Shown: positions 1 through 340 of the stretch, one piece after another
How positions within the stretch are numbered: the stretch's first letter is position 1
Layout of the letters: the number at the start of each line of letters is the position of its first letter
Sequence record: AH003496.2
From: a phage
Reading direction: 5' to 3' (one strand)
DNA length: 340 nt
Translations under genes and position numbers: made by a program
The notes under the pieces: model-generated
Databases searched by the model: none
What the model was told of the DNA's origin: nothing
The model's input: only the letters and a program-made list of their open reading frames with translations

Positions 1-11
1 GGGGATACGTG

Positions 12-36
12 CCCCTCCACCGCCACCCGCACCCCC
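12..36 (-). other. Mirror G-rich tract on the - strand (the + strand here is C-rich: CCCCTCCACCGCCACCCGCACCCCC) with the same G-quadruplex potential
   Basis: Reverse complement of 305-329. Within 11-40 the + strand has 21 C and 3 G, a strong strand compositional bias. Confidence 0.3.
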
Positions 37-47
37 TACCAAAATAA

Positions 48-103
48 TTTCCGTCTGTCAATACCCCCTGCATCCGATAGGCCCGAACTATCACAAACGG
101 AAA
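48..103. repeat. Nested imperfect inverted repeat inside the left arm: 13-mer TTTCCGTCTGTCA (48-60) and the reverse complement of 91-103 (TTTCCGTTTGTGA), 11/13 identical, 30-bp spacer
   Basis: Direct reading of the sequence; the spacer contains a smaller 5-bp stem, GATAG (76-80) with CTATC (88-92). Confidence 0.5.
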
Positions 104-120
104 AGCGATAGCCCAAAACA

Positions 121-220
121 NNNNNNNNNNNNNNNNNNNNNNNNNNNNNNNNNNNNNNNNNNNNNNNNNNNNNNNNNNNNNNNNNNNNNNNNNNNNNNNN
201 NNNNNNNNNNNNNNNNNNNN
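121..220. other. Run of 100 N: undetermined or masked sequence (conventional-length assembly gap or deliberate mask); true length and content unknown
   Basis: Exactly 100 consecutive N characters; 100 N is the common placeholder for a gap of unknown size in scaffolds. Confidence 0.95.
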
Positions 221-237
221 ATTTTATTCCTATCGCT

Positions 238-293
238 TTTCCGTTTGTGATAGTTCGGGCCTATCGGATGCAGGGGGTATTGACAGACGGAAA
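238..293. repeat. Mirror copy of the nested 13-mer inverted repeat inside the right arm: TTTCCGTTTGTGA (238-250) and the reverse complement of 281-293 (TTTCCGTCTGTCA)
   Basis: Follows from the arm symmetry and was confirmed by reading 238-250 and 281-293; with the left arm this gives four copies of the motif TTTCCGTYTGTSA in the window. Confidence 0.5.
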
Positions 294-304
294 TTATTTT
301 GGTA

Positions 305-329
305 GGGGGTGCGGGTGGCGGTGGAGGGG
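305..329 (+). other. G-rich tract with G-quadruplex-forming potential on the + strand (GGGGGTGCGGGTGGCGGTGGAGGGG); i-motif potential on the opposite strand
   Basis: G runs GGGGG (305-309), GGG (313-315), GG (317-318), GG (320-321), GG (323-324), GGGG (326-329). Only three runs of three or more G, so a canonical three-tetrad quadruplex needs a bulged GGCGG tract or a long loop; a two-tetrad quadruplex fits easily. No structure prediction was run. Confidence 0.3.
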
Positions 330-340
330 CACGTATCCCC

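Follow-up and report, generated by a model that had tools for sequence, protein, structure and literature searches.

The stretch of DNA analysed here (the window, 340 nt, phage sequence record AH003496.2) consists of two blocks of real sequence, at positions 1-120 and 221-340, separated by a run of 100 N at 121-220. Its only open reading frame, of 26 amino acids, is trivial and was disregarded. The window starts with GGGG and finishes with CCCC. No match was found in an Rfam scan of the window at E<=10, and a tRNA and tmRNA scan of the window found none. The features that we assigned, including the inverted terminal repeats (ITRs) discussed below, are the following:

1-111, plus strand: left ITR, identical to AY441783.1, complementary to 230-340 and of the same extent in nine genomes.
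1-4, plus strand: 5'-GGGG terminal reiteration, whose complement is the 3'-CCCC template.
1-18 (mirrored at 323-340), plus strand: invariant terminal block, GGGGATACGTGCCCCTCC, with no variable column in 20 aligned ends.
19-76, plus strand: variable middle, C-rich and then with an A/T stretch, holding 25 of the 26 variable columns, which differ among phages and are the same at both ends of each genome.
77-111 (mirrored at 230-264), plus strand: nearly invariant 35-nt inner block finishing with CGATAG at the boundary, invariant in nine genomes save that L17 and PR3 depart at position 91 in their right copies.
112-120, plus strand: the nine unique nucleotides directly following the left ITR, with which the left early promoter region begins, identical in AY441783.
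121-220, no strand: N run, a placeholder for 14,702 bp (AY441783 123-14824) and not sequence.
221-229, minus strand: the nine unique nucleotides directly preceding the right ITR, at the outer margin of the right early promoter region, equal to AY441783 14825-14833 and AY848688 14823-14831.
230-340, minus strand: right ITR, identical to the termini of AY848688.1 and AY441783.1.

We compared positions 1-120 with the reverse complement of positions 221-340. The arms 1-111 and 230-340 were reverse-complementary at 111 of 111 positions, a match whose probability by chance is about 1e-67. Past the arms, mismatches appeared at 112-115 and at 119-120, and the next nine bases agreed at only three positions. 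This agreement between the inner 9-mers, CCCAAAACA at 112-120 against the reverse complement of 221-229, ATTTTATTC, is at chance level (probability of at least 3/9 equal to 0.40). A direct recount therefore gave exactly the coordinates and counts of the original prediction, which had the arms ending at 111 and 230 and the inner 9-mers matching at 3/9. Both inner edges had also been described as A/T-rich, which holds for the right edge (8/9) and only weakly for the left (5/9). The distinct central segment that had been proposed between the arms amounts to 18 real bases and a placeholder, because 121-220 is entirely N. An arm of 170 nt at 96% returned by a repeat finder was rejected as an artefact in which N had been paired with N.

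A blastn search of the GenBank phage collection with positions 1-120 returned matches to PRD1-like tectiviruses only. The best match was a PR772 record, AY441783.1, whose positions 3-122 are identical to window 1-120 (100% over 120 nt), the arm 1-111 corresponding to 3-113, annotated as '5' terminal repeat'. On the other side, window 221-340 was identical (100%) to AY441783.1 14825-14944 and also to the last 120 nt of another PR772 record, AY848688.1. The right arm 230-340 corresponds in AY441783.1 to 14834-14944, annotated as '3' terminal repeat', and in AY848688.1 to the final 111 nt. Identity of the ends to those of PR4, PRD1, L17, PR3 and PR5 was 89-98%. The matches sat at positions 1-120 (or 3-122) and in the final 120 nt of records of 14,927-14,954 nt, that is, at the physical ends of linear genomes.

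AY441783.1 shares with the window the 111-bp ITR and its boundary, and differs from it by two extra terminal T per end. The PR3 record carries one extra T at each end. Position 115 is A in the window and in AY441783, and G in AY848688 and PR4. The A/G difference at position 115 and the extra terminal T among the records are probably differences in end determination.

The identity of the sequence and its terminal position could be read directly from the sequences and records, as could the conservation of the boundary, the concerted changes in both copies and the annotated genes and promoters nearby. We consider it nearly certain that the window comes from coliphage PR772 (Tectiviridae, Alphatectivirus, PRD1 group) and shows both ends of its linear double-stranded DNA genome, that the arms are the 111-bp ITRs and the protein-primed replication origins, and that 100 N take the place of the genome interior. 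The data contain nothing that speaks against this explanation.

The inner boundary was examined in nine complete genomes (two independent PR772, PRD1, PR4, L17, PR3, PR5, Erwinia phage RH-42-1 and Burkholderia phage CSP1) by setting each left end against the reverse complement of its own right end. The ends agreed through …AAAAGCGATAG in nine genomes out of nine and then parted ways, the left end continuing as CCC(A/G)AAACAC… (CCCRAAACA) and the right end as GAATAAAAT / GAATAAAATTTT… in every genome. The ITR was 111 nt long, except in PRD1, PR5 and CSP1, where it is 110 nt because one nucleotide is deleted at window position 32. The boundary was the same in the more divergent, end-truncated genomes of PRDemerald, PRDwine and PKJ.Vi.20.4 and in one IMG/VR UViG. 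The latter (IMGVR_UViG_3300015214_001290, 14,388 nt) is a metagenome-derived PRD1-like contig with the same boundary, a right ITR about 32 nt short and no left end; it illustrates the usual loss of ITR termini in metagenome assemblies.

The layout of the window, two 120-nt blocks around exactly 100 N, resembles a scaffold, and the short-read assemblies of some relatives have damaged ends, for instance the right end of PKJ.Vi.20.4. The window could on these grounds be taken for an assembly or sequencing artefact, be it a fold-back chimera or a pair of short contigs with low-quality errors in their last nine bases. We give this explanation almost no credence. The 9-nt inner edges recurred in the two independent PR772 genomes and in seven further complete genomes from independent isolates, with a single A/G polymorphism at window position 115, and they run on into annotated promoter regions and genes. 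Since the boundary is the same across genomes, the nine-base edges are genuine conserved sequence and not contig-end noise; the suggestion of error-prone contig ends, made as an alternative in the original prediction, does not survive this comparison, which extends to the divergent relatives. A fold-back chimera had already been disfavoured there, and rightly so: it would be palindromic to its centre, whereas the complementarity of the window ends at 111 and 230 and the true interiors are without similarity, and a chimera is thereby excluded.

What lies beyond the boundary can be seen in the matching records. According to the record annotation, the left end of PR772 carries the genes for the terminal protein P8 (gene VIII, 234-1013) and for the DNA polymerase P1 (gene I, 1017-2678), a protein-primed family B enzyme. 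The right end carries the genes for P12 and P19, proteins that bind single-stranded DNA (genes XII and XIX), on the opposite strand and transcribed leftward. Because the window itself holds no gene, its link to P8 and P1 rests on these matching genome records. The left end of PRD1 is similarly annotated in M22161.1 with an ITR at 1-110, a 'promoter region' at 111-232 and the terminal-protein coding sequence from 233, and its right end in M30146.1 with an ITR at 1-111, a 'right early promoter' at 145-172 and gene XII from 242. In PR772 we located a sigma70-like promoter on the left (TTGTAA-18-TAAAAT, AY441783 147-176) and another on the right (TTGCAC-17-TATAAT, 144-172 from the end), the latter missed by a strict promoter scan. 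The two sigma70-like promoters lie about 144-174 nt from both genome ends, at a nearly equal distance despite the unrelated unique sequence that surrounds them.

No similarity could be detected between the two unique flanks: their local alignment score was 14, against a mean of 15.6 for shuffled sequences, and 426 of 500 shuffles reached 14. Residual homology past the boundary, as a trace of an older, longer ITR, was not found in this flank comparison either. The G+C content was 0.43 and 0.35 in the unique flanks, compared with 0.56 in the ITR. Positions 112-120 and 221-229 are the outermost bases of two different early-promoter regions. The repeat stops at 111 and 230 because the two ends then enter different regulatory DNA, the promoter region of the P8/P1 early operon on the left and that of the P12/P19 early operon on the right, both operons facing inward.

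Perfect inverted repeats of 111 bp around non-palindromic sequence have the generic geometry of a site-specific invertible segment, a switch of the phase-variation type flipped by a recombinase, and the original prediction had proposed such a segment or, more broadly, an element whose distinct centre lies between inverted repeats. The broader proposal was borne out, in that the arms are ITRs belonging to a linear phage genome, whose remaining 14.7 kb make up the centre. An invertible switch, for its part, appears so improbable that it can be set aside. In every complete record the arms occupy the extreme ends of a linear genome of 14.9 kb, and such terminal arms leave no outside flanks against which a segment could invert, so that the inversion reading is unsupported. 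Moreover, no recombinase or invertase is present among the 31-32 annotated genes of PR772, as judged from the annotation. The arm had no match in 72,556 plasmids or in 5,426 complete E. coli genomes, and an exact 29-mer spanning the left junction had no match in GTDB species genomes or in JGI metagenomes. A 44-mer taken from the arm gave no match in IMG/VR; a shorter 20-mer matched PR4 and one end-truncated UViG only.

The same searches bear on the reading of the arms as the terminal inverted repeats (TIRs) of a transposable or integrating element (an insertion sequence, a transposon or a Polinton- or casposon-like element) moved by a transposase or integrase. Polintons have long terminal inverted repeats and a protein-primed family B polymerase, and here too long perfect TIRs bound an element that encodes such a polymerase. 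Nevertheless, no transposase or integrase is annotated in PR772, all copies of the arm were at the ends of virion genomes of about 14.9 kb, and no integrated copy was recovered in the host-genome and plasmid searches. A mobile element of this kind is therefore a most implausible source of the window.

Returning to the arms as the ITRs of PR772, we analysed their variation over 20 aligned ends, those of the nine genomes plus the window. Twenty-six ITR columns varied between genomes, and 25 of them carried the identical change at both ends. This co-variation is concerted evolution of the ITR copies. The sole non-concerted column corresponds to window position 91, where the left copy has T and the right copy A in L17 and PR3. 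The terminal block 1-18, without any variable column, is inferred to be the origin core.

In the short-read assemblies of PRDemerald, PKJ.Vi.20.4 and PRDwine, truncated ends are seen, and many positions differ between the left and the right ITR copy. The left copy of PRDemerald is PRD1-like and its right copy L17-like, the right copy of PRDwine carries several unique changes, and the right end of PKJ.Vi.20.4 begins with GGGGGGGGG, a poly-G start. These differences between copies could be real heterogeneity or recombination, or else an assembly artefact.

Two smaller repeats were noticed within the arms. An imperfect inverted repeat of 11 nt (10/11) occurs in each arm, at 48-58 and 93-103 and, in mirror image, at 238-248 and 283-293. 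The single-stranded DNA fold of positions 1-120 had an energy of -11.3 kcal/mol (z = -1.61), and 12 of 200 shuffles were equally good. No compensatory change in the 48-58/93-103 hairpin was found among the relatives, the L17 and PR3 substitutions in its 5' arm being uncompensated. With this z score and no compensation, the hairpin was dropped as a structured element. A direct repeat of 14 nt at 79% identity, CGATAGGCCCGAAC at 75-88 and CGATAGCCCAAAAC at 106-119, shares CGATAG(G)CCC, and its second copy straddles the ITR boundary; it is probably due to chance.

Apart from PR772 itself, the closest known systems include PRD1 (NC_001421.2, M22161.1, M30146.1). Its ITR agrees with that of PR772 in architecture, boundary sequence, invariant blocks (1-18 and 77-111) and flanking early operons. 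The PRD1 ITR differs from that of the window at 11 positions, all within 19-46 and including a 1-nt deletion, hence its length of 110 nt versus 111 nt. In PRD1, a terminal protein is covalently bound to each 5' end and replication proceeds from both ends by protein priming (PMC5175343). Initiation is templated by the fourth C of the 3'-CCCC, and sliding-back then takes place in three steps (PMC5175343, citing Caldentey et al. 1993).

By analogy, each PR772 ITR would be an origin of protein-primed replication. A complex of P8 and P1 would start opposite the fourth C of the 3'-CCCC and then slide back to regain the terminal bases, and the GGGG and CCCC at the ends of the window fit this sliding-back requirement. 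The genome would be copied by strand displacement, P8 being left covalently on each 5' end and the displaced single strands being coated by P12. The repeats could then anneal, either on the displaced single strand as a panhandle or between strands, which would restore the duplex origin and keep the two copies identical. The initiation site, the sliding-back and the panhandle are in this scheme carried over to PR772 from the PRD1 literature. According to the ITR panhandle model, such structures can restore homology between the ends, direct evidence for panhandles being still lacking (PMC11886824). The concerted variation of the ITR copies is what end-homogenisation predicts. On engineered linear replicons, 110-bp ITRs alone suffice as origins (bioRxiv 10.64898/2026.09.28.754915).

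Other genomes replicated by protein priming share the general organisation. In phi29, adenovirus, Bam35 and other tectiviruses of Gram-positive bacteria, GC1 and the Microbacterium tectiviruses, an origin likewise lies in the ITR at each end, a terminal reiteration allows sliding or jumping back and a terminal protein is present on the 5' ends (PMC5175343, PMC4974454, PMC5795452, PMC11768872). The length of the ITR ranges among them from 6 bp in phi29 through about 100 bp in adenovirus and 112-120 bp in the Microbacterium tectiviruses to 326 bp in GC1 (same sources). However, the ITR lengths and initiation positions of phi29, adenovirus, Bam35, GC1 and the Microbacterium tectiviruses differ from those of PR772, and no sequence similarity to them was seen, the phage blastn having given PRD1-like records only.

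The PR772 ITR is already known, and the defining features of Alphatectivirus termini that can be read from sequence were all found in the window or in the matching PR772 records. Descriptions of the PRD1-family ITRs, of how long they are and of their function as origins of protein-primed replication date back to the 1980s and 1990s, and the result consequently carries little weight as a discovery. Savilahti and Bamford (Gene 49:199, 1986) reportedly described ITRs of 110-111 bp for five of the phages, in which terminal and inner blocks are conserved; the same authors (J Virol 1993) are said to have studied the role of the ITR in the life cycle. For the triage of similar records, a very short record with an N gap between perfectly inverted repeats is to be read as the two ends of a linear ITR-bearing genome and not as a switch or a chimera. 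The sequences also have an applied relevance, since continuous-evolution systems in E. coli use ITRs as the origins of their orthogonal linear replicons (bioRxiv 10.64898/2026.09.28.754915, 10.64898/2026.02.20.706958).

The one point that still holds some biological interest is the invariance of the inner 35 nt of the ITR, which equals that of its extreme terminus. This block (77-111, mirrored at 230-264) is more conserved than the ITR middle, and at both early promoters it is found about 33 nt upstream of the -35 hexamer. From this conservation pattern it is conceivable, though unlikely, that the block is not origin DNA only but a shared cis-regulatory or protein-binding element, selection on which would fix the ITR boundary. 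As candidate roles, the block might co-regulate the two early operons, or might bind P12, P19 or a host factor.
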